From Armatimonadota bacterium (GTDB lineage Bacteria > Armatimonadota > HRBIN16): a DNA stretch of 64,000 nucleotides. The position numbers and the translations under genes are program-made. Positions 7,220 through 27,623 of this stretch are shown here, piece after piece (the first letter of the stretch is position 1; each line of letters opens with the position of its first letter). The notes under the pieces were generated by a model, which had not been told where the DNA came from, searched no databases, and saw nothing but the letters and a program-made list of their open reading frames with translations. The stretch covers positions 1,551 through 65,550 of the forward strand of contig PSLZ01000016.1 in NCBI GenBank assembly GCA_040289885.1, written 5' to 3'.

Positions 7220-10096
7220 TCAACGGGACAAAACCCTGGATGACATGCTCACCTGCTGTTCCATGCCCAGAATCTTGCGCAAGAAGCGTCCGGTGTAACT
7301 TGAATCGACCTGTGCTACCTGCTCGGGCGGTCCCTCCGCGACGATATAGCCGCCTTCCGCCCCACCCTCGGGACCGAGGTCGATAATCCAGTCGGCGGTT
7401 TTGATCACGTCCAGATTGTGTTCGATCACCAACACGGTGTTGCCGTTATCTACCAACCGGTGCAGGACGTTAAGCAGTTTCTCGATGTCCGCGAAATGCA
7501 AGCCGGTGGTAGGTTCGTCCAGAATGTACAGCGTTTTGCCAGTGGCCCGCTTGGAGAGCTCGGTGGCAAGCTTCACACGCTGTGCCTCGCCGCCCGAGAG
7601 GGTGGTCGCCGGCTGACCGAGTTTGATGTAATCCAGTCCCACATCGTGCAGGGTCTGCAGTTTGCGGGCGATGGGCGGAATGGCTTTGAAGAACTCCAGC
7701 GCCTCTTCCACCGTCATGTCCAGCACGTCGGCGATGGATTTGCCCTTGTAGCGCACCTCCAGCGTCTCGCGGTTGTAACGCTTGCCCTTACACACCTCAC
7801 AGGGCACATATACATCGGGTAGGAAGTGCATCTCGATCTTGATGATGCCGTCGCCTTTACACGCCTCGCACCGCCCGCCCTTCACGTTGAAGCTGAACCG
7901 CCCAGGCTTGTAGCCGCGCACTCTGGCGTCCTGTGTGCTAGCGAACAGTTCGCGAATCATATCGAAAACGCCCGTGTAGGTCGCCGGGTTCGAGCGCGGC
8001 GTGCGCCCGATAGGCGACTGGTCGATGTCCACCACCTTGTCAACGTGCTCCATACCGTCCACCCCATCGTGCGCGCCCCATAGCGGATGCGAGCCGTAGA
8101 TGTGGTGCATCAGGCGCGGATAGAGCGTTTCCTGAATCAGCGTGGACTTGCCCGAACCCGACACGCCCGTGACGCACACGAACACCCCCAGCGGGATGCG
8201 CACAGTGATGTTCTTCAGGTTGTGCTGGCGCGCACCGCGAATGGTCAGCCAGCGGTCGCCCAGCTGGCGACGGATGAGGGGGACAGGAATCTGTCGTTTG
8301 CCACTGAGGTACTGTCCGGTGATAGATTGCTCGCAGGCGAGGATGTCCTCCACTGTGCCCTGCGCCACCACGTAGCCGCCGTGCTCGCCTGCGCCCGGAC
8401 CGATGTCGATGATATGGTCGGCGGTGCGGATGGTCTCTTCGTCGTGCTCTACTACAATGATGGTGTTGCCTAGATCGCGCAGGTGCAGGAGGGTATGGAT
8501 CAGTTTCTGGTTATCGCGCTGATGCAAGCCGATGCTTGGCTCGTCCAGAATGTACAGCACACCCATCAGCCCACTGCCGATCTGTGTTGCCAGCCGGATG
8601 CGCTGTGCCTCACCGCCCGCCAGCGTCGCCGCGGGGCGGTCCAGCGTTAGGTAGCCCAGCCCTACGTCCAGCAGGAACCCTAGCCGCGTCTGGATCTCGC
8701 GTAGGAGCTGGTGTGCAATGTGGCGATGGCGCTCGGAGAGTTTGGCGGGCAGTTCATCGAAGAACCGTTGCGCCTCCTCCACCGACAGCGCGGTGAGCTG
8801 CGCGATGTTCAGCCCGCCAACCGTCACCGCCAGGCTTTCGTCCTTCAGGCGCAGTCCCTTGCATTTCGGACACGGCTTGTCCGACATGTATCGCTGGAGC
8901 CACTCGCGTACGTTCTCGGACTCCGTCTCGTTATAGCGCCGCTGGAGCATGGTCACGATGCCTTCAAACTCGCTATCGAAATAGCGGGTGCGTCCCCAAC
9001 GGTTGCGGAAGGTAACGGTCACGTTGCCCTCTACGCCGTAGAAGAGCGCGTGGCGCTGGTGCTCGTTCAGCTGGGCGATGGGGGTATGGATGGTGAAGCC
9101 CAGCTTCTGCGCCACGCCGCGCAACAGCCCCTCGTAATAGGGCATCAGCCCATCTTTGCCGGCGAAGGGTTCTATGGCGCCCTCGGCGATGCTCTTGCTG
9201 GGGTCGGGCACGATCAGGGCGGGGTCGAACTCGGTTTTGAAGCCCAGCCCGTGGCATTCGGGACACGCCCCATAGGGACTGTTGAACGAGAAACTGCGCG
9301 GCTCGATCTCGGGCAGGCTGATACCGCACACCGCGCAGGCGAAGTTCTCCGAGAAGACCAGCTCCTCCCCGTCCACGACCTGCGCGAGCACCACGCCCTG
9401 TCCCATGCGAATGGCGGTCTCCACCGAGTCCGCGATGCGTTTCTCGATGCCTGCGCGGATGACGATTCGGTCCACCACCACCTCGATGTGGTGTATCTTA
9501 TAGCGGTCCAGGGTGGGGATGGGCTGTTCGCTCAGGTCTATCAGTTCGCCGTCCACGCGCAGGCGGGTGTAACCAGCCTTGCGAGCGTCTTCCATCTCCT
9601 TGCGGTATTCGCCCTTGCGCCCGCGCACGATGGGAGCGAGCATCTGCAGGCGCGTTCCTTCGGGCAGAGCCAGCAGGGTGTCCACCACCTGCTCGGTGGT
9701 TTGCTGGGCGATTTCGCGTCCGCACTGCGGGCAGTGCGGGATGCCAATGCGCGCGTACAGCAGGCGTAGATGGTCGTAGATCTCGGTGACGGTGGCTACT
9801 GTGGAGCGTGGGTTTTTGCTGGTGGACTTCTGGTCAATGGACACGGCGGGCGACAAACCGATGATGTGGTCTACATCGGGCTTGTCCATCTGCCCAAGGA
9901 ACTGGCGCGCGTAGGCGGAGAGGGACTCCACATATCTGCGCTGTCCCTCGGCATAGATGGTGTCGAACGCCAGACTGGACTTGCCCGACCCCGAAATGCC
10001 AGTGATCACTACCAGCTTATCGCGCGGAATCTCGACCGTGATGTTTTTCAGGTTATGTTGGCGCGCACCGCGAACAATGATTTTGTCCTGAGGCAT
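7220..10096 (-). CDS. uvrA: Excinuclease ABC subunit A (UvrA).
   Basis: 958 aa with two ABC ATPase modules and zinc-finger Cys clusters ([19 protein letters not shown]). The N-terminus [19 protein letters not shown] is canonical. Confidence 0.95.
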
Positions 10097-10203
10097 GGCG
10101 AACCTTCGTCATCCGGGGAGTTTACATCAAGGATTGTAGCACATCGAGCAGGCAGGAAGCAACCGATTTAGTGCGGAAAGAGGCATAGATAGACCTAAAA
10201 CAA

Positions 10204-11925
10204 TCAGGACCGTTCACGCGGTTGAGGCATGGCGCGGTCGAAGATGCGCGCATTGGGTACACGCTGAAGAACTTTTCGGAAAGGCTTGTTTGGCCCGATC
10301 AGTATGATCACATAAGTATCCTCTGGAAAGGAAATCTCCGTTGTCAGCCGTTTCAGCAGATTCTCGGTGCGTCTTTGGCTATAATACCCGTACCATGCCA
10401 CGTGGGGAACCACCTCCAGTACATAGAGGGGTTGGTGTACCATGTGCTTTACATGCTTGCGTACCAAATATGCCGTTCGTACCTCGGCGTATGCAGCCAA
10501 CTGAGATCGAATCCCTGCCACCTGTTCGGTGGTTAAATCGTGTGGTTCAAACTGGTCCCGTGGTATCACTTTAGAACGCTCTTCTTGCGCGGCTTCCAGC
10601 TCCGCCAGATACTGCTCTGCCCTCTCGGCGTACTGCTTAGCTTGCTCGTCCAGCCCGTGTTCTCTCGCAAATTGGTACGCAGTGTATAGAGCGTTCAGTG
10701 CGGTCTGATCGTTCGACTGCATCGCGCGGTTCAGGTAGTCAAGCCCTTCGGTGTCACCGTGGTTTAGCAACAACTGCCCTAGGAGATAGTTCGCGCCAGA
10801 GTGAGCCGGAGCCTGCGTTAGCAACTGACGGAGCAAAGGTATAGCCTGCTCCTCGCTTTGCAGTTCCGCCTTCAGCTGAGCCAGTTCCCAGAGTTCCTCC
10901 TCGCAGAGATGGGTTTGTTGTGCTTTGCGTTCTAGATCGGCAATTCGCTGGCGCCCCTGCTCAACATATTGGTAGTACTGCTCCCATTCCGCTTGGACAG
11001 TCTCCCGCCACATTTGGTCCAGCGCACTTGAGAGGTGCCTGTGCAGTTCCCCCAAGAAAAAGCCAGCGGCTGTTTCGGTCAGCGGTTTGTTCAGGGCTAT
11101 CAGCGCTTCAATACATTGCTCGTCGCTCTGCTCGGCAGAAAGAATACCAAGCGCTATCAGACGCTCTCTGAAAGCAGGATGGGTATCATCTACCTCTGTT
11201 TGCATAGCCAAAGCCTGTTTCAATGCGAGTGCTGTCTGCTCTGTCCCGGGGCTTTCGCGCAGGCGTAAACCCGCTTCGGTGTAAGGGGCAACAGTGGGTC
11301 GCGGCTGTTCGTAGGCGAGCTTGGCAATACCATCCCATAGATCACGCCAGTGTCTTTCCTGAACTACCAACCGCACCAGAGCGGATGCATGGTGTAAGCC
11401 GGTCAGGCGTGCGCTAATGCGGTCTGCCTCGTACTCATGCAGGCGGCGTAGGGTGAATGTGTACGCGCTGAAGTAAGGCATATACCATTTCAGGAATATC
11501 CGGAAGATCCATGCTCCTCTATGCTTCCGTTCCTCCAGATGCTGGAGGATCTGTCCCCACGTTCTGTTCAGGCGGTAGATCCAGCTCGTGAAGCGGTTAT
11601 GCTGTCCCTCGAGGTGTCCTAGTTCATGCGCCAGTAATGCACGGAACTCTTCTGGAGATGTCGCCTGCATCAGCGGAAGTCCAACCAGCAAATAGTTCTG
11701 GTACCAACCCAGAACGCCCACCCTCGGAATCGGCGCCACCCCTGCATTGTATTCGGGTGTCACTAGCACGCGGTGAATCGGTGGGGTGTGGAGAGACTGT
11801 TGCAGGTTCTTGATGGTACGGAACAGACGCGGAGCCATCTTTGCTGTTAATTCTATCCCTTCCGGCGGTTCGATGGTTACCCGCATCGCCCGCACAAGGA
11901 TGCCCAAAAAGACCAACAGGGGCAC
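10204..11925 (-). CDS. M48-family zinc metallopeptidase with C-terminal TPR repeats (BepA/YfgC-like). The N-terminus appears frameshifted (see finding).
   Basis: HELGHLEGQH (HExxH) plus downstream E. The C-terminal half consists of TPR-like helical repeats. An upstream 68-codon membrane-anchor ORF (to 12130) lies in another frame. Confidence 0.75.
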   Translation of the reverse strand: MPLLVFLGILVRAMRVTIEPPEGIELTAKMAPRLFRTIKNLQQSLHTPPIHRVLVTPEYNAGVAPIPRVGVLGWYQNYLLVGLPLMQATSPEEFRALLAHELGHLEGQHNRFTSWIYRLNRTWGQILQHLEERKHRGAWIFRIFLKWYMPYFSAYTFTLRRLHEYEADRISARLTGLHHASALVRLVVQERHWRDLWDGIAKLAYEQPRPTVAPYTEAGLRLRESPGTEQTALALKQALAMQTEVDDTHPAFRERLIALGILSAEQSDEQCIEALIALNKPLTETAAGFFLGELHRHLSSALDQMWRETVQAEWEQYYQYVEQGRQRIADLERKAQQTHLCEEELWELAQLKAELQSEEQAIPLLRQLLTQAPAHSGANYLLGQLLLNHGDTEGLDYLNRAMQSNDQTALNALYTAYQFAREHGLDEQAKQYAERAEQYLAELEAAQEERSKVIPRDQFEPHDLTTEQVAGIRSQLAAYAEVRTAYLVRKHVKHMVHQPLYVLEVVPHVAWYGYYSQRRTENLLKRLTTEISFPEDTYVIILIGPNKPFRKVLQRVPNARIFDRAMPQPRERS

Positions 11926-12182
11926 TAACAGTTTCCATAATGACGGATGGGAGGGTTACCATCACGTAAATCACAGTGACTGTGAGTGTTAGCGTGACGG
12001 CGACCACAAGCCAGATGTAGAAGTATCCCAAACCAGCCAGCAGAGCGACCCGAAAACGGTAGGCGAAAGGATGTCGGCGCGAGTAATCTTCCAGTCGCCT
12101 CACCATCGCCTCGAATCGCTCAGGGGTCATCGCCCTTCCTAACTACCTCTCTTGCGTAGTAGCAGTGAGCGCGAGCTACCCG

Positions 12183-16729: not shown

Positions 16730-19234
16730 GTGAAAGCAGGTGTGGGATTGAGAGCAGTCGCGATAGTGCTGGTGAGCGTGATCGCCTTGCTGGCCGGGGT
16801 CGGTGGAACGCAGGCGCAAGGATTGACGGTGGGTCAGGGCGTTTTTACCGACCGGGACGGCGGCACGCATCGCTGGCAGGTGACCCCAGCGCACAGCCTG
16901 CAGTGGGACGGAGGGCTGTATCTGCCTGCAGGGGTGTGGTTCACACCGCAATCGCTACGTGCGGACGCCACCGAAGCCGACTTCCAGCGTGACGAGCGCC
17001 TGCTAGACGCGCTGGCACAGGCGGGTATTTCCGATGTGTGCGTGGTGCCACGCGAAGCGGGCAATGTAGTCTCGGTAGAACGCTGGCAGAGGCTGGTGGA
17101 TGCGCTGGAATCGCGCAACTTTCGCTACGGCATTTCGCTGGGCGAAGCGGGATTACCCATCGCTCAAGGCTATGTGGTTGCGCCTGCGTCCAACCGCATT
17201 GCCAACATCGTGCAGGGGGGAGTGGTCGTCTTTCGCACCCCTTACGCCGACCACGCGCTGGCATTCGTGGTAGATACACACGACAACAGCGTGCTCAGCC
17301 GCTCGCGCGTGAACGTAGAGCAGGGCGTCGGTCGCCTACCACTGCAAATGGCAGAGGGCGTGCGGGCGGTGATGGTTGCGTATCCTCACCGTCCACTGGC
17401 GGATTCAGGGGGGTTCGTGCCCGACGTGTGGGAGGGCTACGATGGATGGCGCGATAGCGTTTTACAAACGCTCGGCAAGGTGCGGTTCGGGAAGGGGCTT
17501 CGCTTTTTTGCCGACCCGCTCGGTCGGTGGACACCGCCTTCGGACGATCAGGGCATTGTGCCATCGTCGGAGATGTTCCGACTGGGCTTCGAGGCGTTTC
17601 TGGCACGCAAGTACCAGACTCTGGAGAACCTGATGAGCGCATGGGCGCTCTCCGAGCGGAATCTGGAGTCTTTCGCCGACGCGGCGCGCCAGCTCGCGCT
17701 CTGGCGGGGGCAAAAGGGGCTACCTCTGCTCTATGACCTGCAAACGGGCAATCTGCGCCGGGTGGAAGCCTCCCGATGCGCCTACTGGACGGACATCAAC
17801 CAGTACCTGCGCGAGTCCCTGCAGGATTCGGCGGACCGCATGGCGGTGGTTCTGCGCTTGCATGGAGCGGATGTGCCCGTGCTGGTGGGCTGGCAGAGGT
17901 TTCATCCCGTATACGTCAGCACGCAGAACCAGCCGGGCATCGAAGGGTTGCTGGTGGTAACCGCCGAGCGCGGTTTTAACCTCGCGGTCAAAGCGATGGC
18001 GCTGGCGATGGGGCAGGCAACGGAGAGCGTGCGCCCCACGTGGCTGGTGAGCATGGTCACGCGCGACCTCAAGCAGGACTACGCAGACAGCCAGAGCCTG
18101 CACAGCGAAGCCGAGACGCTGGCTCAGGCGGGCAGTCGTGGCTGGTTCTTTCGCATCACCGAGAACACGGTGGACGTCACCGTCCTGCAGTGGCTACGCG
18201 CTTTTCAGCAGTCCGCGCAGGCACGAGCCGAATGGCAGGAGGCGCCCAAAGTGCTGTTCTTCCCGCAATCGGCTTCGGGTATCTGCGAAGTGAGGCGACT
18301 GCCTGGGGGGGGGTGGTGGCTCCCCTCCGTGCGACCGGGGGCGATCGTCAACGTCGGGCAGAACTATCGTGCCTACCAGATCAGCACGCTGGGGGGTCAG
18401 CAGTACGTGATGTGGGCGGCGGACCGGGAACGCAAGACCAGCTTTCGCCTCACCGAGCCGCGCGTGTTCACCGCACAACTGCCCGATGGCACGCCAGTGA
18501 AGGTCAGCGGCAAAGGGCGCAGTTTCTCGATGACCCTGCCCACCGTGCCCGTGGTGTTCACCAACAGCGGCACGCTGTTCCCGGTGGAGGCGGCGGAGGA
18601 CGCCGTCAACGAACTGGCGCGACTGATCAAGGTGGGTGAGTCCCGTCGCACCGATGTGGGCACGGCTCGCTTCCGCTGGCAACAGGCGCGCGACAACCTG
18701 CGGTCGGGACAGGTGTACACCGCCTACTTACTCGCCAGCGAGGCGCTGAACGAGTTGATCCAACGTCTCGCTCAGTACCTGTGGATGGAGGCAGAGACGG
18801 CAGACGAGAGCAATTTCGACGAGGTGCTGGAACGCCCGTGGGCGAGCGACGGCAAAATCGTTCGGCTGGAGAACTATAACGACCCGCCGGCGCGGGGCTA
18901 TTTCCTGCGCTACCGATTTGCGGTGAAAGAGGAAGGCAGTTACACTATGTGGGTGGCGCGCCGGGCGGAAGGCGTTTCCCCCCTGCTGTGGAGTATCGAC
19001 GACAACGCGCCCCAGCCTCCCGAAAGCAACGTGCTCGTCGGCGAGTACGGCGAAGGGTTCGGGTGGACGCGCCTGGGGACGGTCAGGCTATCGCCCGGCT
19101 TCCACACGATCGAACTGCGGGTGGTCAACCGTGTGGGCGACAGCAGTACGCCGTATGTGCAGTGGTGTGATGTGGTGCTGTTGACCGCCGAGAACCTCAT
19201 CCCGCAGGGCACTGCCAAGCCGCCGGTCAGGTAG
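16730..19234 (+). CDS. Large secreted protein of unknown function (834 aa). It may be carbohydrate-active, with a C-terminal beta-sandwich-like domain.
   Basis: GTG start and a signal peptide MKAGVGLRAVAIVLVSVIALLAGVGGTQAQG. No catalytic motif was recognised. It is followed by a DUF624-like membrane protein and a PfkB kinase. Confidence 0.5.
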   Translation: MKAGVGLRAVAIVLVSVIALLAGVGGTQAQGLTVGQGVFTDRDGGTHRWQVTPAHSLQWDGGLYLPAGVWFTPQSLRADATEADFQRDERLLDALAQAGISDVCVVPREAGNVVSVERWQRLVDALESRNFRYGISLGEAGLPIAQGYVVAPASNRIANIVQGGVVVFRTPYADHALAFVVDTHDNSVLSRSRVNVEQGVGRLPLQMAEGVRAVMVAYPHRPLADSGGFVPDVWEGYDGWRDSVLQTLGKVRFGKGLRFFADPLGRWTPPSDDQGIVPSSEMFRLGFEAFLARKYQTLENLMSAWALSERNLESFADAARQLALWRGQKGLPLLYDLQTGNLRRVEASRCAYWTDINQYLRESLQDSADRMAVVLRLHGADVPVLVGWQRFHPVYVSTQNQPGIEGLLVVTAERGFNLAVKAMALAMGQATESVRPTWLVSMVTRDLKQDYADSQSLHSEAETLAQAGSRGWFFRITENTVDVTVLQWLRAFQQSAQARAEWQEAPKVLFFPQSASGICEVRRLPGGGWWLPSVRPGAIVNVGQNYRAYQISTLGGQQYVMWAADRERKTSFRLTEPRVFTAQLPDGTPVKVSGKGRSFSMTLPTVPVVFTNSGTLFPVEAAEDAVNELARLIKVGESRRTDVGTARFRWQQARDNLRSGQVYTAYLLASEALNELIQRLAQYLWMEAETADESNFDEVLERPWASDGKIVRLENYNDPPARGYFLRYRFAVKEEGSYTMWVARRAEGVSPLLWSIDDNAPQPPESNVLVGEYGEGFGWTRLGTVRLSPGFHTIELRVVNRVGDSSTPYVQWCDVVLLTAENLIPQGTAKPPVR

Positions 19235-19242
19235 GGACACCG

Positions 19243-20031
19243 ATGCAAAAGCCCGCTTCGCCTACCATCAGTTTCTTCAGAGCTCTGCGCAACGCCACCG
19301 GTGACGCCTACGACCGATTGGGGTTGACGCTGGCTAGCAGTCTGCTCTGGTTCGCGGCATCGATGGCAGGGGTAATGGCTATCAACGCACTTGCGCGCCC
19401 TCAGCCCGCGCTGGTGACATTAGGCGCGCTGTTCGTCGGGGGCGTACTGCTCGGGGAGGCATGGCTGGGATGTGTGTATCTCGCCTACCGTATCGCCACG
19501 CGCGACGAGCCGTCCCTGCTGTGTTTTGTGGAAGCGTGGCGGAGTTTGGGGTGGAAGACCCTGTGGCTGTCGGTGATCCAGACCTTTGTGACGCTGGTCA
19601 TCCTGGCGAACATCGCGCTCTATCTGCAGAGCCCACTGATATTCCTGCGCGTGTTTGGGGTAGTGATTCTGTACGTTCTGCTGTTGTGGTTAACCGCGGT
19701 GCTGTATCAGTATCCGCTTTTGGTGGAGCATGTGTTCGGCGCGTATGTGGGCGAGCAGAGCAAGACAGGCTGGCTGAGACGGGTCTTGCGGCGGTCGTTA
19801 CTACTGACCATCGGCAATCTGCCCTTCAGCGCGGGGATGTTTGCCATCGTGGTGGCGTGGGGCATTTTCTGCTTTGTCAGCGTGGTTGGGCTTGCGCTGA
19901 TGTTTGCGGGGTTTGTTTCGTTGGCGGTTCTACACTGGACACGCGCGCTATTGGTCAACTATGGCGTCATCATCCCTCCGCCCGAGCCGGAGGTGGTGCC
20001 GGATGAGCAGTTTCGCATTCCCGACGAGTAA
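19243..20031 (+). CDS. Polytopic membrane protein, YesL/DUF624-like.
   Basis: 262 aa with 6 predicted TM. The N-terminal SFFRALRNATGDAYDRLGLTLASSLLWF resembles DUF624 (low confidence). Confidence 0.45.
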   Translation: MQKPASPTISFFRALRNATGDAYDRLGLTLASSLLWFAASMAGVMAINALARPQPALVTLGALFVGGVLLGEAWLGCVYLAYRIATRDEPSLLCFVEAWRSLGWKTLWLSVIQTFVTLVILANIALYLQSPLIFLRVFGVVILYVLLLWLTAVLYQYPLLVEHVFGAYVGEQSKTGWLRRVLRRSLLLTIGNLPFSAGMFAIVVAWGIFCFVSVVGLALMFAGFVSLAVLHWTRALLVNYGVIIPPPEPEVVPDEQFRIPDE

Positions 20032-21062: not shown

Positions 21063-22531
21063 TTGGTGGTGAGAGCAATGCGGAAGGTGCAACGGCGAAT
21101 GTCTACGGGCATCGCCGGGCTGGACGAAGTGCTCGGTGGTGGGCTCATTCCTCAGCGTGCGTACCTCTTGCGGGGTGCTCCGGGCACAGGCAAGACACTG
21201 GTCGGACTGCATTTCCTAGCGGCGGGCGCACGGCGCGATAACCCATTGTTCATTGCGATGGAAGAGCCCGAGTATAAAATCCGTCAAAGCGCCGCCAGCA
21301 TGGGGTTGGACCTGCGTGGGGTACACTTTCTGAACCTCAGTCTATCTTCGGAGTTTTTTGCTCAGGCACAGACCTATGACCTGTTTGCGCCAGCAGAAGT
21401 AGATCGCTCGCCCACGACCAACTTGGTGGTGGAGCGCGTACGCGCGCTAAAGCCCAGCGGGTGTTTGTGGATTCGATGACCTACTTCCGCTACCTTGTGC
21501 CCAATGAGTTCGAGTACCGCAAGCAGGTCTTGTCGTTCCTGCGCTTTCTGGCGGACCAGGGCGCGACGGTGATGTTCACCTCCGAAAGCACTGTTCTGGC
21601 GCCGGATGATGACCTGCAAGCACTCAGCGATGGGGTCATCCATCTGGAGATGAACGGTGGCAACAGACGGCTGAGCGTGACCAAAATGCGGTGCAGTGCG
21701 TTCCGCTTGGGATGGCATGCCCTGCGTATCGATAAGCGGGGTCTGCGCGTATATCCCCATCTGCTTCCCGATCCCGGGCGTTTTACTGCCGTTCAGGAAC
21801 AGATTCCGTCGGGCATGCCTGCGCTGGATGAGCTTCTGCATGGCGGACTGGAACGGGGCACCATTGTGTTGATCACGGGTGCAAGCGGGGTCGGCAAGAC
21901 CACGTTGGGGATGCAGGTCATGAAGGAGGCGGCTACACGGGGGGAGCGATCGGTGGTATACACGTTCGAGGAGGAAGTGGCGCATATCCTGAGCCGGTGT
22001 GCCGCAGTGAGCATCCCTGCGAGGGAGATGAGCGAGCAGGGAACGCTCTCGTTGGTAAAGGTAGAGCCGTTACAGCATTCCGCCATCGAGTTCGCCTACC
22101 TGGTGCGCGACGAGGTGGAGAGGCGTGGGGCGCGCATCGTCATGATAGATAGCGTGGCAGGCTATCGACTGGCTCTGCATGGGGAAGACCTGGTGGGGCA
22201 ACTGCACGCGCTGTGTAAGTGGCTACAAAGCCGCGGCGTGCTAACGCTTCTGATCAACGAGACGCATGCCGTGTCGGGTCCATTGCTGGTCAGCGAAGTG
22301 GGGCTGAGCGATCTCGCGGACACGGTGCTGTTCCTGCGCTATGCGGAGAAGTACGCCCCTGAACGAACGGAGCTGACGCGGATCATCGGCGTGTTGAAGA
22401 AGCGGCTGAGCGACTTTGACCACACCGTTCGGGAGTTTCGCATCACCGCGCAGGGTGTTCAGATAGGACAGCCGATCCCTCATTGGCGCAACATCGTGGC
22501 AGACACACCAGTGTGGGGAGAGCGACCATGA
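21063..22531 (+). CDS. KaiC-like double RecA-superfamily ATPase (COG0467). It is interrupted by an apparent -1 frameshift near 21465-21480.
   Basis: Domain 1: GIAGLDEVLGGGLIPQRAYLLRGAPGTGKT. Domain 2: GMPALDELLHGGLERGTIVLITGASGVGKT. The frame change falls between ...RALKPSG and RVFVDSMTYF, the position of the KaiC RVxIDS motif. Confidence 0.7.
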
Positions 22532-23610
22532 ATCGCCTGCTTCTGATGCTGGCAAACCGAGCGAACCTGCGCCTGCTCGAGGAGACGCTAGCGGTGCGTT
22601 ACACCGCTACCCCGTTCGACGAGTCGCGGTATCGCGGCTCCTTACGCTCATGTGACCTGGTGATTGTGGACGGTGTCATGCTGGAGCGATACATGGACGC
22701 CATTTCGCAGGCGAAACAAGACGCTCTGCCGACGTTTCTGCCAGTTCTGCTCGTGACCTCACGGCAGGGAGCCGGGTTGGCAACGCGCAATCTGTGGAGG
22801 TCTATTGATGGAGTGATGCTCACACCGATTCAGCGGGTGGACCTCCAGGCGTGGGTGGAGGTGATGTTGCGAACGAGACAGCTCTCTCTGGAGCTGTATC
22901 AGCGCAACCAGGAGCTGGAGGCGTTTGTACATGCCGTAACGCACGAGCTGCGTGCCCCGCTACGTGCCATGACGGGCTTCGCCGAGGCGGTGATGGAGGA
23001 TGCCGGACTGCCGACAGACAGTGAGCCCTTCAGATACCTCCAGCGCATCGCCGAAGCGGCGCAGGAGATGAAGCGGGTTCTGGATTCTCTGCTGACCTTT
23101 ACTCGTCTCGGCAGGGAAGTGGAGATTCAACCAGTGTGGCTGAAGCCGCTGATAGACATCTGCTTGCGCGAGCTAGAACAGGAAATCACCCGGACGATGG
23201 CGCAGATAGAGTACAGCCTACAGTGCGAAGTGGTGGAATCCGATGCTTTGCTACTCAAGACGGTTATGAACAATCTGATTTCCAACGCGTTGAAGTTTCG
23301 CTTTAAGGAGAGACCGGTTTACGTACATATCTCCGCTTATCCGCGCGGAGAGTTCTGCCGTATCGAGGTGCAGGACAACGGCATCAGCATCCCACCCGAG
23401 GATACCGAGCGGGTGTTCGCTCCCTTCACGCGACTGCACGGCGTGGAGGAGTATCCGGGTGTGGGGTTGGGGTTGAGTATCGTCAAAAAGGCGGTCACAT
23501 CCATGAACGGACGATGTGGGGCGGTGTCACGCCTCAACGAGGGAAGCACGTTCTGGATCGAACTGCCGCTGACAGAGGATAACGGCGATGAGAGTGCTAT
23601 TGATAGATGA
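22528..23610 (+). CDS. Sensor histidine kinase with an N-terminal receiver-like (pseudo-receiver) domain.
   Basis: Its ATG overlaps the KaiC stop (ATGA). H-box HAVTHELRAPL, N-box NLISNALKF, G-boxes DNGISIPPE and GVGLGLSIV. Confidence 0.8.
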   Translation: MNRLLLMLANRANLRLLEETLAVRYTATPFDESRYRGSLRSCDLVIVDGVMLERYMDAISQAKQDALPTFLPVLLVTSRQGAGLATRNLWRSIDGVMLTPIQRVDLQAWVEVMLRTRQLSLELYQRNQELEAFVHAVTHELRAPLRAMTGFAEAVMEDAGLPTDSEPFRYLQRIAEAAQEMKRVLDSLLTFTRLGREVEIQPVWLKPLIDICLRELEQEITRTMAQIEYSLQCEVVESDALLLKTVMNNLISNALKFRFKERPVYVHISAYPRGEFCRIEVQDNGISIPPEDTERVFAPFTRLHGVEEYPGVGLGLSIVKKAVTSMNGRCGAVSRLNEGSTFWIELPLTEDNGDESAIDR

Positions 23611-25165
23611 GAACCCGAACGACCGGGAACTGATTAAGAGGTATTTGCGCAAACACATTGCGGACCTGCACGTGATCGAAGTGCCAAATCACGAACGCTT
23701 CAAGAAGGCGCTGGAAAGCGGAGGCTTTGATATCGTGCTGACTGACTATCATCTGCACTGGTCGGATGGGCTGACGGTTCTACAAGCCGTTAAGCTTCAG
23801 TATCCGCATATCTCCGTCATCATGGTGACCGATTCGGGGAGCGAGGAGATCGCCGTACAGGGGATGCGCGAAGGGCTCAGCGACTATGTGCTGAAAGGGC
23901 ATTTGGCGCGCCTGCCCAATGCGATGGTAGAGGCTATCGAGCGCGAAAGGCTGAAGCAGGAACACGCCGAGGCGGTTCAAGAGCTCCAACGGTCGCACCA
24001 GGCGCTTCAGGAGGCGATGAAGCAACTGCAGGAGACGCAACAGCAGGTGATTCAACAGCAGCGCCTGCATGCACTGGGCGAGATGGCAAGCGGGATTGCG
24101 CACGACTTCAACAACGCGCTCACACCCATTCTGGGGTTGACCGAGCTTCTGCTCGATAATCCCAGCGTCACTGTGGACCCACAGGTGCGTCGGTATCTGG
24201 AGATGATTCACACCGCGGCGCAAGATGCTGCGCAGACGGTTAGCCGTCTGCGCGAGTTCTACCGCCCTCGGGGACGCGCGGAGTTGCGCCAATCGGTAGA
24301 CGTGAATGAACTAGTGCAGGAGACGGTGGAACTGACCTCCCCGCGCTGGCGGGAACAGGCGGAAGCGAAAGGGGCTTTCATCCACATGCATGCCGACCTA
24401 CAGCCTGTCCCCCTCGTTTCGGCAAACGGTGGCGAACTGCGGGAGGTGCTGCAGAACCTTATCTTCAACGCGGTAGATGCGCTTCCGCGCGGCGGCGATA
24501 TTATCATCCGCACCCGCACGGTGAGCGAATCGGCGCGGTGCTGGGTGGTGATGGAGGTGGAGGATAACGGCATTGGGATGGACGAGGAGACGCGCGCCCG
24601 CTGTTTCGAGCCGTTCTTCAGCACCAAAGGGGAGCAAGGTTCGGGATTGGGGCTGGCGATGGTATACGGTATCGTTCAGCGGCACGATGGCAGAGTCGAT
24701 GTAGACAGCACAGTGGGCAAGGGAACGGCGGTGCGGGTGCACCTGCCTGTGGATCCCGTGCAAACCACCGCTATGGTCGTTCGAGAGGATTCCGCCCCTC
24801 AGCGTCCTCTGCGAATCCTGTGCGTGGAAGACAAGCCCCTCGTGCGTGAAGTTATCGTGGAGCATCTGCTCAGGCAGGGGCACACGGTAGAAGTGGCGTC
24901 GGACGGCAAGCAGGGGCTAGAGCGGTTCCTAGCGTCGCGCTACGACCTGGTGATCACCGACTTGGCGATGCCTGTCATGAACGGGGAACAGTTGGCAGTG
25001 GAGATCAAGAAGATTGCCCCCAACAAGCCCATCATTTTGCTCACCGGTTTTGGCGACCCGCGCCTGGCGCAAAACGCTTATTCCGACCTGGTGGACTGTG
25101 TGTTGATTAAGCCCGTTACGCTTTTCGCGCTGAGGCAAGCCATTGCCAAGGTCACCGCGGAGTAG
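23588..25165 (+). CDS. Hybrid histidine kinase / response regulator (REC-HisKA-HATPase-REC).
   Basis: REC1 [10 protein letters not shown]...VLTDYHL. H-box [10 protein letters not shown]. HATPase VEDNGIGMD...[12 protein letters not shown]2 [13 protein letters not shown]...VITDLAMP. It overlaps the upstream kinase by 23 nt. Confidence 0.8.
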
Positions 25166-26744: not shown

Positions 26745-27623
26745 CTATTGCACGATTCCTGAGCCGTCAATGGGGAAGGAATCCAACACTACTAGCACCC
26801 CGTGCGACTCCGCCAGCGAGCGGGCGTTGCCGGTAACGCCCTTCCCCGCTACCACGGGCAGAGTGTTCCATCCCCGTTCACGCAGCACCGCCGCCCGTTC
26901 CAACGCACGCTCTACGTCGCTTTCGTCCACAGTCCACGAGATCTCCCATACCATCAGCCACTCTTCGTCGGTGGTGCGCCGCCGCCCAGTAACCAGTAGG
27001 TCTATCGCCAGAATCTGCTCCCACTCTTGTTTGCTCAGCGGACGTTGGTCATACAGTGAGTCAATCATCTGCCCTTTATCGACAACTCTCAGCCGGCGGA
27101 AGAAAAGCCCTAGGATCGCGGTGGCGTTGGCGCGGTAGTAGGATTCCAGATGGAATCCCTTCAGCTCGCCGACATCTTTCTGAATGCTGTCCACTCGCTC
27201 CACCAGTCTGTCCAGTCTGATGGTCAGTTCATCCACCCTGGCAGTGAGCTGTTCCAGCCTGGCAGTAAGGTCATTCACTCTGGCAGTGAGTTCATCCACC
27301 CTGGCAGTGAGCTGTTCCAGCCTGGCAGTAAGGTCATCCATTCTGGCGACGATCTGCCGATGGTGTTCGGCAAGTTGGCTCATCTTAGCGGTCAGGCTCT
27401 CTATCTGGCGGTTGTTGGCTTCCTGCTGTTCTGCAAGCTGGCGGAACCGTTTTTCGGTCTCCTCCGCGAGGCGTGTTAGCGCTTGCTCGAGGCGGTCGGT
27501 GCGTTCAGGCAGCTGCTGATAGCGTTCAGGCAGGAGTGCCTCCAGCAGGGGCTGTCGCCATTCTGGATGCTCCTGTAGGGCGCGGATAATGTCTTCCAGG
27601 GTTTCCCGTGCCATCTCTCTCAC
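26745..27623 (-). CDS. Hypothetical coiled-coil protein with 21-aa tandem repeats and a C-terminal PD-(D/E)XK-like (DUF3782-like) domain.
   Basis: Repeats DLTARLEQLTARVDELTARVN x2 with flanks. The C-terminus ...IDLLVTG...LMVWEISWTVDESDVERA...VVAGKGVTGNARSLAESHGVLVV resembles a restriction-endonuclease-like fold. Confidence 0.5.
   Translation of the reverse strand: MREMARETLEDIIRALQEHPEWRQPLLEALLPERYQQLPERTDRLEQALTRLAEETEKRFRQLAEQQEANNRQIESLTAKMSQLAEHHRQIVARMDDLTARLEQLTARVDELTARVNDLTARLEQLTARVDELTIRLDRLVERVDSIQKDVGELKGFHLESYYRANATAILGLFFRRLRVVDKGQMIDSLYDQRPLSKQEWEQILAIDLLVTGRRRTTDEEWLMVWEISWTVDESDVERALERAAVLRERGWNTLPVVAGKGVTGNARSLAESHGVLVVLDSFPIDGSGIVQ
27215..27355. repeat. 63-bp tandem DNA repeat (two full copies plus partial flanks) encoding the heptad-like coiled coil of the protein above.
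   Basis: gttcatccaccctggcagtgagctgttccagcctggcagtaaggtcat[t/c]cact recurs with period 63 (27226 and 27289). Confidence 0.8.

Follow-up and report, generated by a model that had tools for sequence, protein, structure and literature searches.

We analyzed a 64-kb window of genomic DNA from an Armatimonadota bacterium (64,000 nucleotides (nt) of contig PSLZ01000016.1; "the window" denotes this whole stretch), in which positions 21063-25165 hold the coding sequence for a KaiC-like ATPase followed by the genes of two histidine kinases, here called HK1 and HK2. Four plus-strand open reading frames (ORFs) cover the segment, at 21063..21479, 21461..22531, 22483/22528..23610 and 23588..25165. The ATPase is split over the first two of these, which lie in different frames and correspond to products of 138 and 351-356 amino acids (aa). 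The 5′ fragment gives 138 aa when read from its first in-frame start (TTG 21063; 21063..21479); orthologues begin with MRK or MHK, and by this measure its likely start is ATG 21078 (21078..21479). It contains a GLDxxLGGG motif, the Walker A motif of the first KaiC domain (CI; GAPGTGKT) and a catalytic EE pair, is out of frame past Pro126, and ends at the TGA at 21477-21479. The 3′ fragment (21461..22531, plus strand, −1 frame; 356 aa from GTG 21461 or 351 aa from ATG 21476) supplies the remainder of CI and the whole of the second domain, CII (GASGVGKT, EE, IVMIDS and GLSDLAD). HK1 (22528..23610, plus strand, 360 aa) is composed of a pseudo-receiver at about residues 1-120 (22528-22890), HisKA at 130-195 and HATPase_c at 239-349. 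HK2 (23588..25165, plus strand, 525 aa) is a hybrid kinase with a receiver (REC) at 3-118, HisKA at 163-227, HATPase_c at 283-389 and a second REC at 410-519. The start of HK1, ATG 22528, lies within an ATGA that overlaps the end of the ATPase reading frame by 4 nt, and HK2 starts at ATG 23588, 23 nt ahead of the HK1 stop. The initial annotation of this locus had described three coupled genes with 4- and 23-nt overlaps. The overlaps hold, and are identical in the orthologous locus L007, but the first "gene" consists of two ORFs in different frames, and the break between them had been either missed or silently repaired.

The split is caused by a 1-nt deletion at 21453..21455, in a Pro codon just ahead of the CI Walker B strand. 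In a DNA alignment with the intact orthologue in L007, the window reads AAG CC-CAG CGG GTG TTT GTG GAT where L007 reads CAG CCT CAG CGC GTG TTT GTG GAC. The same lesion is present in six contigs (L001-L006, from ENA ERZ1673964, JGI 3300003453, and Logan SRR6519253/55/56 and SRR5249264) that come from different samples and assemblers and are each 99.9% identical to the window. By comparison, 17 orthologues (71-82% identity), found in metagenome-assembled genomes (MAGs) of Armatimonadota and Chthonomonadia and in "bacterium HR16", are unbroken proteins of about 484 aa. A single scan of species-representative genomes with the ATPase returned more than 506 relatives, and the ORF is full-length in all 80 of the best loci, which we annotated with local hidden Markov models (HMMs). 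Because an identical lesion occurs in six independently assembled contigs while the orthologues are intact, the frameshift is genuine and no sequencing error. Public gene calls already hold the C-terminal fragment as a gene of its own that starts at ATG 21476 (P0016, 351 aa). When mapped onto the AlphaFold2 (AF2) model of an intact orthologue (P0003), the break falls between the helix at 112-124 and the Walker B strand at 128-132. The N-terminal fragment as encoded matches only positions 2-77 of the 231 in the Pfam KaiC profile, and VFVDS, the CI Walker B strand, is kept in the 3′ fragment only if translation starts at GTG 21461. In another metagenome contig (L015:3145-4598, ENA ERZ25039602 contig_20393) the KaiC-like gene is also called in two parts, of 66 aa and 369 aa, through either a real break or an assembly error; these calls are followed by an intact small receiver, a kinase with a pseudo-receiver, and a REC-HisKA_2 kinase.

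We hold with good, though not complete, confidence that this locus is one copy of a widespread cassette (described below) whose ATPase gene has been broken by a real 1-nt deletion and is most likely a recent pseudogene, with both intact kinases left without input from the ATPase. Several features of the gene look like signs of decay. Five substitutions (D86N, P89L, E109D, G206C and Y412D) are private to the window and affect sites at which at least 98% of 119 family members agree; G206 lies within the MRGS motif and Y412 is an invariant Tyr of the family alignment. Most close orthologues have between zero and two such private changes. Among the near-identical metagenome contigs, the ATPase gene shows just two single-nucleotide polymorphisms (SNPs), each of which changes a conserved amino acid and is thus non-synonymous: G26D, which affects the LGGG motif and is seen in contig L004 alone, and position 22133 (codon 225 of the 3′ fragment, beside the CII Walker B), where the window has CGC, encoding the Arg of the family consensus, and 6/6 contigs have TGC, encoding Cys. 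HK1 and HK2 contain no SNPs, and the three in pfkB, upstream of the ATPase, are all synonymous. A young pseudogene appears to be the best fit to these data, and loss of function is probable.

A number of observations weigh against this interpretation. Private changes at conserved sites are not peculiar to the window, as P0013 has 5 and P0017 has 8. In a Tajima-type relative-rate comparison of ATPase amino acids, the excess in the window lineage is non-significant (34 vs 27 and 37 vs 23, p = 0.07-0.37); an old pseudogene is thus not supported, and the lesion is probably recent. Across samples the frameshifted allele is fixed, and no further lesion closes either ORF. Our evidence comes from a 64-kb window, and a second, intact KaiC-like copy may lie elsewhere in the genome. 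In addition, the studied protein to which we compare the family below, LbKaiC2, is probably a member as judged solely from the spacing of published residue numbers. Finally, the ATG at 21476 overlaps the upstream TGA as ATGA (21476-21479), a restart context for the downstream ORF with which a two-piece protein is conceivable.

This last point leads to the alternative that survives best, namely that the ATPase is still made and functional, either as two pieces (138 aa plus 351-356 aa) or through −1 ribosomal frameshifting. The ATGA would allow termination and reinitiation, a start at GTG 21461 would retain the Walker B strand, and the fixation of the allele in all sampled populations, the partner kinases free of SNPs, and an overall substitution rate that is not significantly raised could all be read in its favor. 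We nevertheless regard it as improbable. The cut falls within the RecA core, immediately ahead of the central Walker B strand, and no obvious Shine-Dalgarno sequence precedes either GTG 21461 or ATG 21476. The radical private changes G206C and Y412D affect invariant sites, and both polymorphisms alter conserved residues. As for recoding, no slippery heptamer of the form X XXY YYZ is found within 21440-21479, and a programmed −1 frameshift is judged unlikely on these grounds together with the 17 orthologues and 80 genome loci that are in frame; because the orthologues are in frame, recoding is also not ancestral. We thus retain a recent pseudogene as the preferred reading. A working "KaiC-dependent" relay, as initially proposed, is doubtful in this organism, given the real frameshift within the ATPase gene.

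The region in the window is the Armatimonadota copy of a widespread cassette in which the ATPase gene overlaps the gene of a cytoplasmic kinase with a pseudo-receiver. For linkage counts we used the 68 annotated loci with at least 2.5 kb of downstream sequence. In 66/68 of them a kinase that begins with the pseudo-receiver domain (105-184 bits) lies downstream, irrespective of the type of kinase core, and the association also holds in the reverse direction, since all three independently picked HK1 homologues adjoin a KaiC-like gene. The linkage of the kinases to the ATPase in related genomes, on which the initial annotation had staked its interpretation, is therefore borne out. A single-domain receiver of about 123 aa lies between the ATPase and the kinase in 59/68 loci; it keeps the Asp, Ser and Lys of receivers and has Asp-Arg at the position of the acidic pair. 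A REC-first hybrid kinase directly follows the pseudo-receiver kinase in 13/68. In the Armatimonadota clade that includes the window, the REC-HK-REC hybrid takes the place of the small receiver, and a four-gene layout with both the small receiver and the REC-HK-REC hybrid is found in Ktedonobacteria and other Chloroflexota. By group, the cassette was recovered from 54 cyanobacterial loci (many of them Microcoleus), 15 from Chloroflexota and 4 of the Armatimonadota type, as well as from one deltaproteobacterial, one actinomycete and one Ca. Manganitrophus genome. The cyanobacteria carry the family member as an additional paralogue. The earlier description of the system as "non-cyanobacterial" does not fit these numbers, in that most of the named relatives retrieved are cyanobacteria. 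Genes adjoining 96 related loci encode receivers and kinases, with no kaiB or kaiA among them. In the window itself, the initially reported absence of kaiB agrees with our tblastn search with a KaiB query, a weak test, which gave chance-level matches only and no KaiB-like ORF.

Some individual loci show further arrangements. In an Anaerolineae contig (L012:12344-13434, = L038), a second KaiC-like gene, preceded by two single-domain receivers, follows the first cassette at a distance of about 5 kb; one genome can thus hold several such modules. In a deltaproteobacterial MAG (L010:2500-5016, = L088), the gene of a MEDS-PAS-HK-REC kinase lies upstream of the KaiC-like gene in divergent orientation. 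Separately, faint precomputed matches to MEDS are present on several KaiC-like proteins of the cassette family.

When the frame is repaired, the ATPase is a full-length double ATPase of KaiC fold and belongs to the KaiC family. Both Walker A motifs noted initially (GAPGTGKT and GASGVGKT) are present, and so are GIAGLDEVLGGG and GMPALDELLHGG, which correspond to the reported GxxxLDxxLxGG-type motifs. The repaired protein has two stretches that match PF06745 KaiC (E 6.8e-68, 228.9 bits vs a gathering cut-off of 26.6); as encoded, the first KaiC domain is divided between two ORFs. A phmmer search of the PDB returns full-length KaiC (best 1.3e-46), then Rhodobacter KaiC at ~1e-30 and single-domain archaeal homologues at ~1e-21, with RAD51 paralogues only at ~1e-4. 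The AF2 model of the intact orthologue P0003 (predicted local distance difference test (pLDDT) 82.6) yields KaiC structures for all of the top 50 Foldseek matches in the PDB (E ~1e-40, template-modelling (TM) score 0.74-0.80). Across the family, both Walker A and Walker B motifs are conserved and the CI Glu E63 and the CII pair E298/E299 are invariant; CI position 62 varies, and the window copy has EE in CI.

The protein is, as judged by its profile scores and residues, not a clock-type KaiC. It misses both equivalog cut-offs for the clock protein in NCBIfam (NF006799, 217.6 vs 408 bits; TIGR02655, 142.9 vs 546.25 bits). The initial annotation had recommended a search for autophosphorylation sites near the CII Walker B. 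We find that S411, which aligns with KaiC S431, is nearly invariant in the family and that the T426 position holds Ser/Thr, and that an equivalent of T432 is absent: the family has an invariant Tyr there, and the window has Asp. The C-terminal A-loop/KaiA-binding extension is also absent, with the alignment stopping near KaiC residue 494 of 519. One could still propose a genuine timekeeper, in which KaiC acts as an hourglass without need of KaiA or KaiB and drives the kinases by its cycle of phosphorylation, by appeal to the full-length KaiC fold, the residues at the S431 and T426 positions, and the conserved Walker A/B motifs and CII EE. We consider this very unlikely given the scores under both cut-offs, the Tyr or Asp at the T432 position and the missing KaiA-binding tail. 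The failure to find KaiB in the window, by the weak test mentioned above, points the same way, as does the broken gene. Furthermore, LbKaiC2, probably of the same family, showed no detectable autophosphorylation (PMC11680916).

A further alternative is an intact operon that works as initially described, with a frameshift that arose only in sequencing or assembly. Such errors can produce an indel of one base in a short run of C, and the rest of the gene is open and well conserved, but the same 1-nt gap in six independent contigs leads us to reject this explanation, which we rate as highly improbable; gene callers split the gene in those contigs too (the P0016 cluster). In general, short reads are not prone to errors at a run of CCC. 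As for a RadA/Sms- or ArlH-type ATPase that is only nominally KaiC-like and has kinases as neighbors by coincidence, we give it practically no credence: weak partial matches to RadA, RadB, ArlH/FlaH and DnaB models arise through the common P-loop core, whereas the RadA score (TIGR00416, 67.7 vs 403 bits, P-loop region only) and the ArlH/FlaH scores (NF052589, 46.7 vs 215 bits; NF004723, 62.2 vs 194 bits) fall short of their cut-offs and cover one domain, the two-domain full-length match is to KaiC alone, as had been supposed from the start, and coincidence is at odds with kinase linkage in 66/68 loci.

The partner kinase HK1 has HisKA and HATPase_c domains preceded by an N-terminal stretch of about 125 residues without a Pfam match; in particular, Response_reg gave no match to this region even at E <= 10. 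The AF2 model of the domain (pLDDT 90.3) is a (beta-alpha)5 fold with the order b1-a1-b2-b3-a3-b4-a4-b5-a5, and its Foldseek neighbors are receiver domains only (GacS D1, ArlR, DivK, PleD and similar). The receiver-like N-terminal domain noted initially is thus confirmed as a receiver fold, one that lacks key catalytic residues. The acidic pair is absent (A-N in the window) and the Lys is replaced by Ala/Thr-Pro. The Asp at the acceptor position, D48, is conserved in at least 95% of the HK1 family, and several further residues of the domain are invariant. The published definition (PMC12632262) makes the domain a pseudo-receiver, although it has kept the Asp. The H-box of HK1 reads HELRAPL, and both HK1 and HK2 have intact H, N and G boxes. 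Homologues of HK1 of about 350-360 aa with whole-length coverage are numerous. The pseudo-receiver aligns with the free small receiver of the other cassettes over 112 columns (hhalign 94.5%, E 8e-8), and by this alignment the two are paralogues. We considered that the HK1 N-terminal domain might be the small receiver gene fused to the kinase; this was rejected, as Chloroflexota cassettes (L013) hold a free receiver plus a full-length HK1-type kinase. For HK2, Pfam gives REC-HisKA-HATPase_c-REC, in accord with the hybrid with receivers at both ends that had been reported. In the alignment both receivers are canonical, the first with DE...D...T...K and the second with ED...D...T...K, and the same architecture recurs in the orthologues and in the Chloroflexota cassettes.

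These features suggest a mechanism for the intact cassette, in which the protein-protein contacts and the direction of phosphotransfer are modeled on KaiC-SasA/CikA, on the binding of KaiC by a Pseudomonas kinase and on the pseudo-receivers that recur in partners of Kai proteins. The ATPase would form a ring, and its slow nucleotide cycle, possibly with phosphorylation of S411, would set its binding to the HK1 pseudo-receiver. We place the docking there because the downstream kinases differ in core type and have the pseudo-receiver as their only constant feature. The free small receiver, where present, might also be bound by the ATPase depending on the nucleotide or Ser411 state. Binding of the ATPase may toggle HK1 between kinase and phosphatase modes, and HK1 would pass phosphate on to the free atypical receiver in most phyla or to the two HK2 receivers here. 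A DNA-binding domain is absent from the operon. In the window organism the ATPase step is probably missing, and HK1 and HK2 would be unregulated, otherwise regulated, or next to decay. More speculatively, the cassette could be a distinct input system for two-component signaling, present in more than 500 species of at least six phyla, in which a non-clock KaiC paralogue serves, for instance, as a slow timer or as a gauge of temperature or energy, and its nucleotide or conformational state is sensed by two non-canonical receivers that are paralogues of each other; we offer this tentatively, as an idea with some chance of being right. If it is true, the window strain would be a natural loss-of-ATPase or two-piece variant that shows the kinases without the ATPase. 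In either case, as the gene is genuinely frameshifted, it should be annotated as disrupted, and it is an unsuitable example of a working module.

Outside the cassette, pfkB lies upstream and purE and purM downstream, in a synteny that is confined to the Armatimonadota clade. Scans for promoters and terminators gave no signal beyond that expected from shuffled sequence, and the local HMMs detected no further KaiC-like, receiver or kinase gene within the 64-kb window. Further upstream, at 16730-20031, two adjacent genes of 834 aa and 262 aa without a Pfam match are conserved in related Armatimonadota contigs, where they likewise precede pfkB. The G+C content of 10001-12000 is 0.541, vs about 0.61 in the remaining window. 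Downstream, a 21-nt/63-nt tandem repeat at 27226-27347 lies within a coiled-coil-like gene (minus-strand ORF 26745..27623). The alignment of L001 to the window breaks and re-registers at this repeat, and the gene is called at 289-324 aa across contigs, which suggests that the repeat copy number varies within the population.

Modules of this kind have been described before, as a stand-alone KaiC homologue with kinase and receiver genes and without KaiA or KaiB; the window represents a damaged Armatimonadota member. The system is consequently less "poorly characterised" than was first stated, since both the Pseudomonas KaiC/HK/response regulator (RR) modules (10.1101/2022.01.26.477890) and LbKaiC2 (PMC11680916) have been studied. 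LbKaiC2 of Leptolyngbya boryana (LBWT_17950; Matsukami et al. 2024) is multimeric with a weak, temperature-dependent ATPase activity; its gene precedes that of a histidine kinase by 3 bp, and it is regarded by the authors as a group separate from KaiC1/2/3 (PMC11680916). Like the window family, it has ~25-30% identity to clock KaiC, one conserved CI Glu, EE in CII, a single phosphosite Ser and no C-terminal extension, with an HK gene directly downstream as in the loci counted here. The spacings of E69, E304-305 and S417 in LbKaiC2, 235 and 113, equal those of E63, E298-299 and S411 in the family. The window copy differs from LbKaiC2 in being frameshifted and in having EE in CI and Asp in place of the family Tyr after the Ser. 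A pseudo-receiver domain, a small receiver or a hybrid kinase is not described in the LbKaiC2 paper (PMC11680916).

In Pseudomonas (P. putida PP_3834/PP_3835 and P. protegens; Terrettaz et al.), KaiC homologues occur without KaiB and share their operons with genes for HKs, hybrid HKs and single-domain RRs; the kinase uses its N-terminal domain to bind KaiC, and the KaiC homologues contribute to stress resistance (10.1101/2022.01.26.477890). The window shares with these modules a KaiC homologue and HK/hybrid HK in one operon, without KaiB or a DNA-binding output. The Pseudomonas kinase, in contrast, is described as having an N-terminal PAS domain where HK1 has a pseudo-receiver, the Pseudomonas KaiC proteins are phosphorylated at one or two sites, and the Armatimonadota version, unlike the Pseudomonas module, is without a single-domain receiver.

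The KaiABC clock protein resembles the window family in its two-domain fold (TM ~0.78) and, by analogy, in the logic of an ATPase ring that would control histidine kinases (SasA/CikA). Pseudo-receivers also recur in the Kai clock, as the CikA PsR and the KaiA N-domain (PMC12632262). Unlike clock KaiC, the window family has no T432, no A-loop tail and no SasA-type thioredoxin-like domain, and it is without KaiA and KaiB as far as the window and the neighbors of the related loci show. Docking to the partner would use the N-terminal pseudo-receiver in the window family as against a KaiB-like domain in the clock kinase. Archaeal KaiC-like ATPases are said, going by a title and by citing papers, to have been proposed as signal-transduction hubs, and would share the idea of acting with signaling proteins and not as clocks; they are reportedly mostly single-domain or otherwise associated. 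Stand-alone KaiC homologues are common. One large KaiC-like family, probably of the LbKaiC2 type, almost always precedes a kinase with a pseudo-receiver, usually together with a related small receiver, and the pseudo-receiver is a concrete candidate, open to testing, for the point at which the ATPase meets two-component signaling. That nearly all partner kinases have the pseudo-receiver signature, and that this domain is apparently paralogous to the small receiver, is not spelled out in the published descriptions that we compared, and in this respect our comparative observations appear modestly new.

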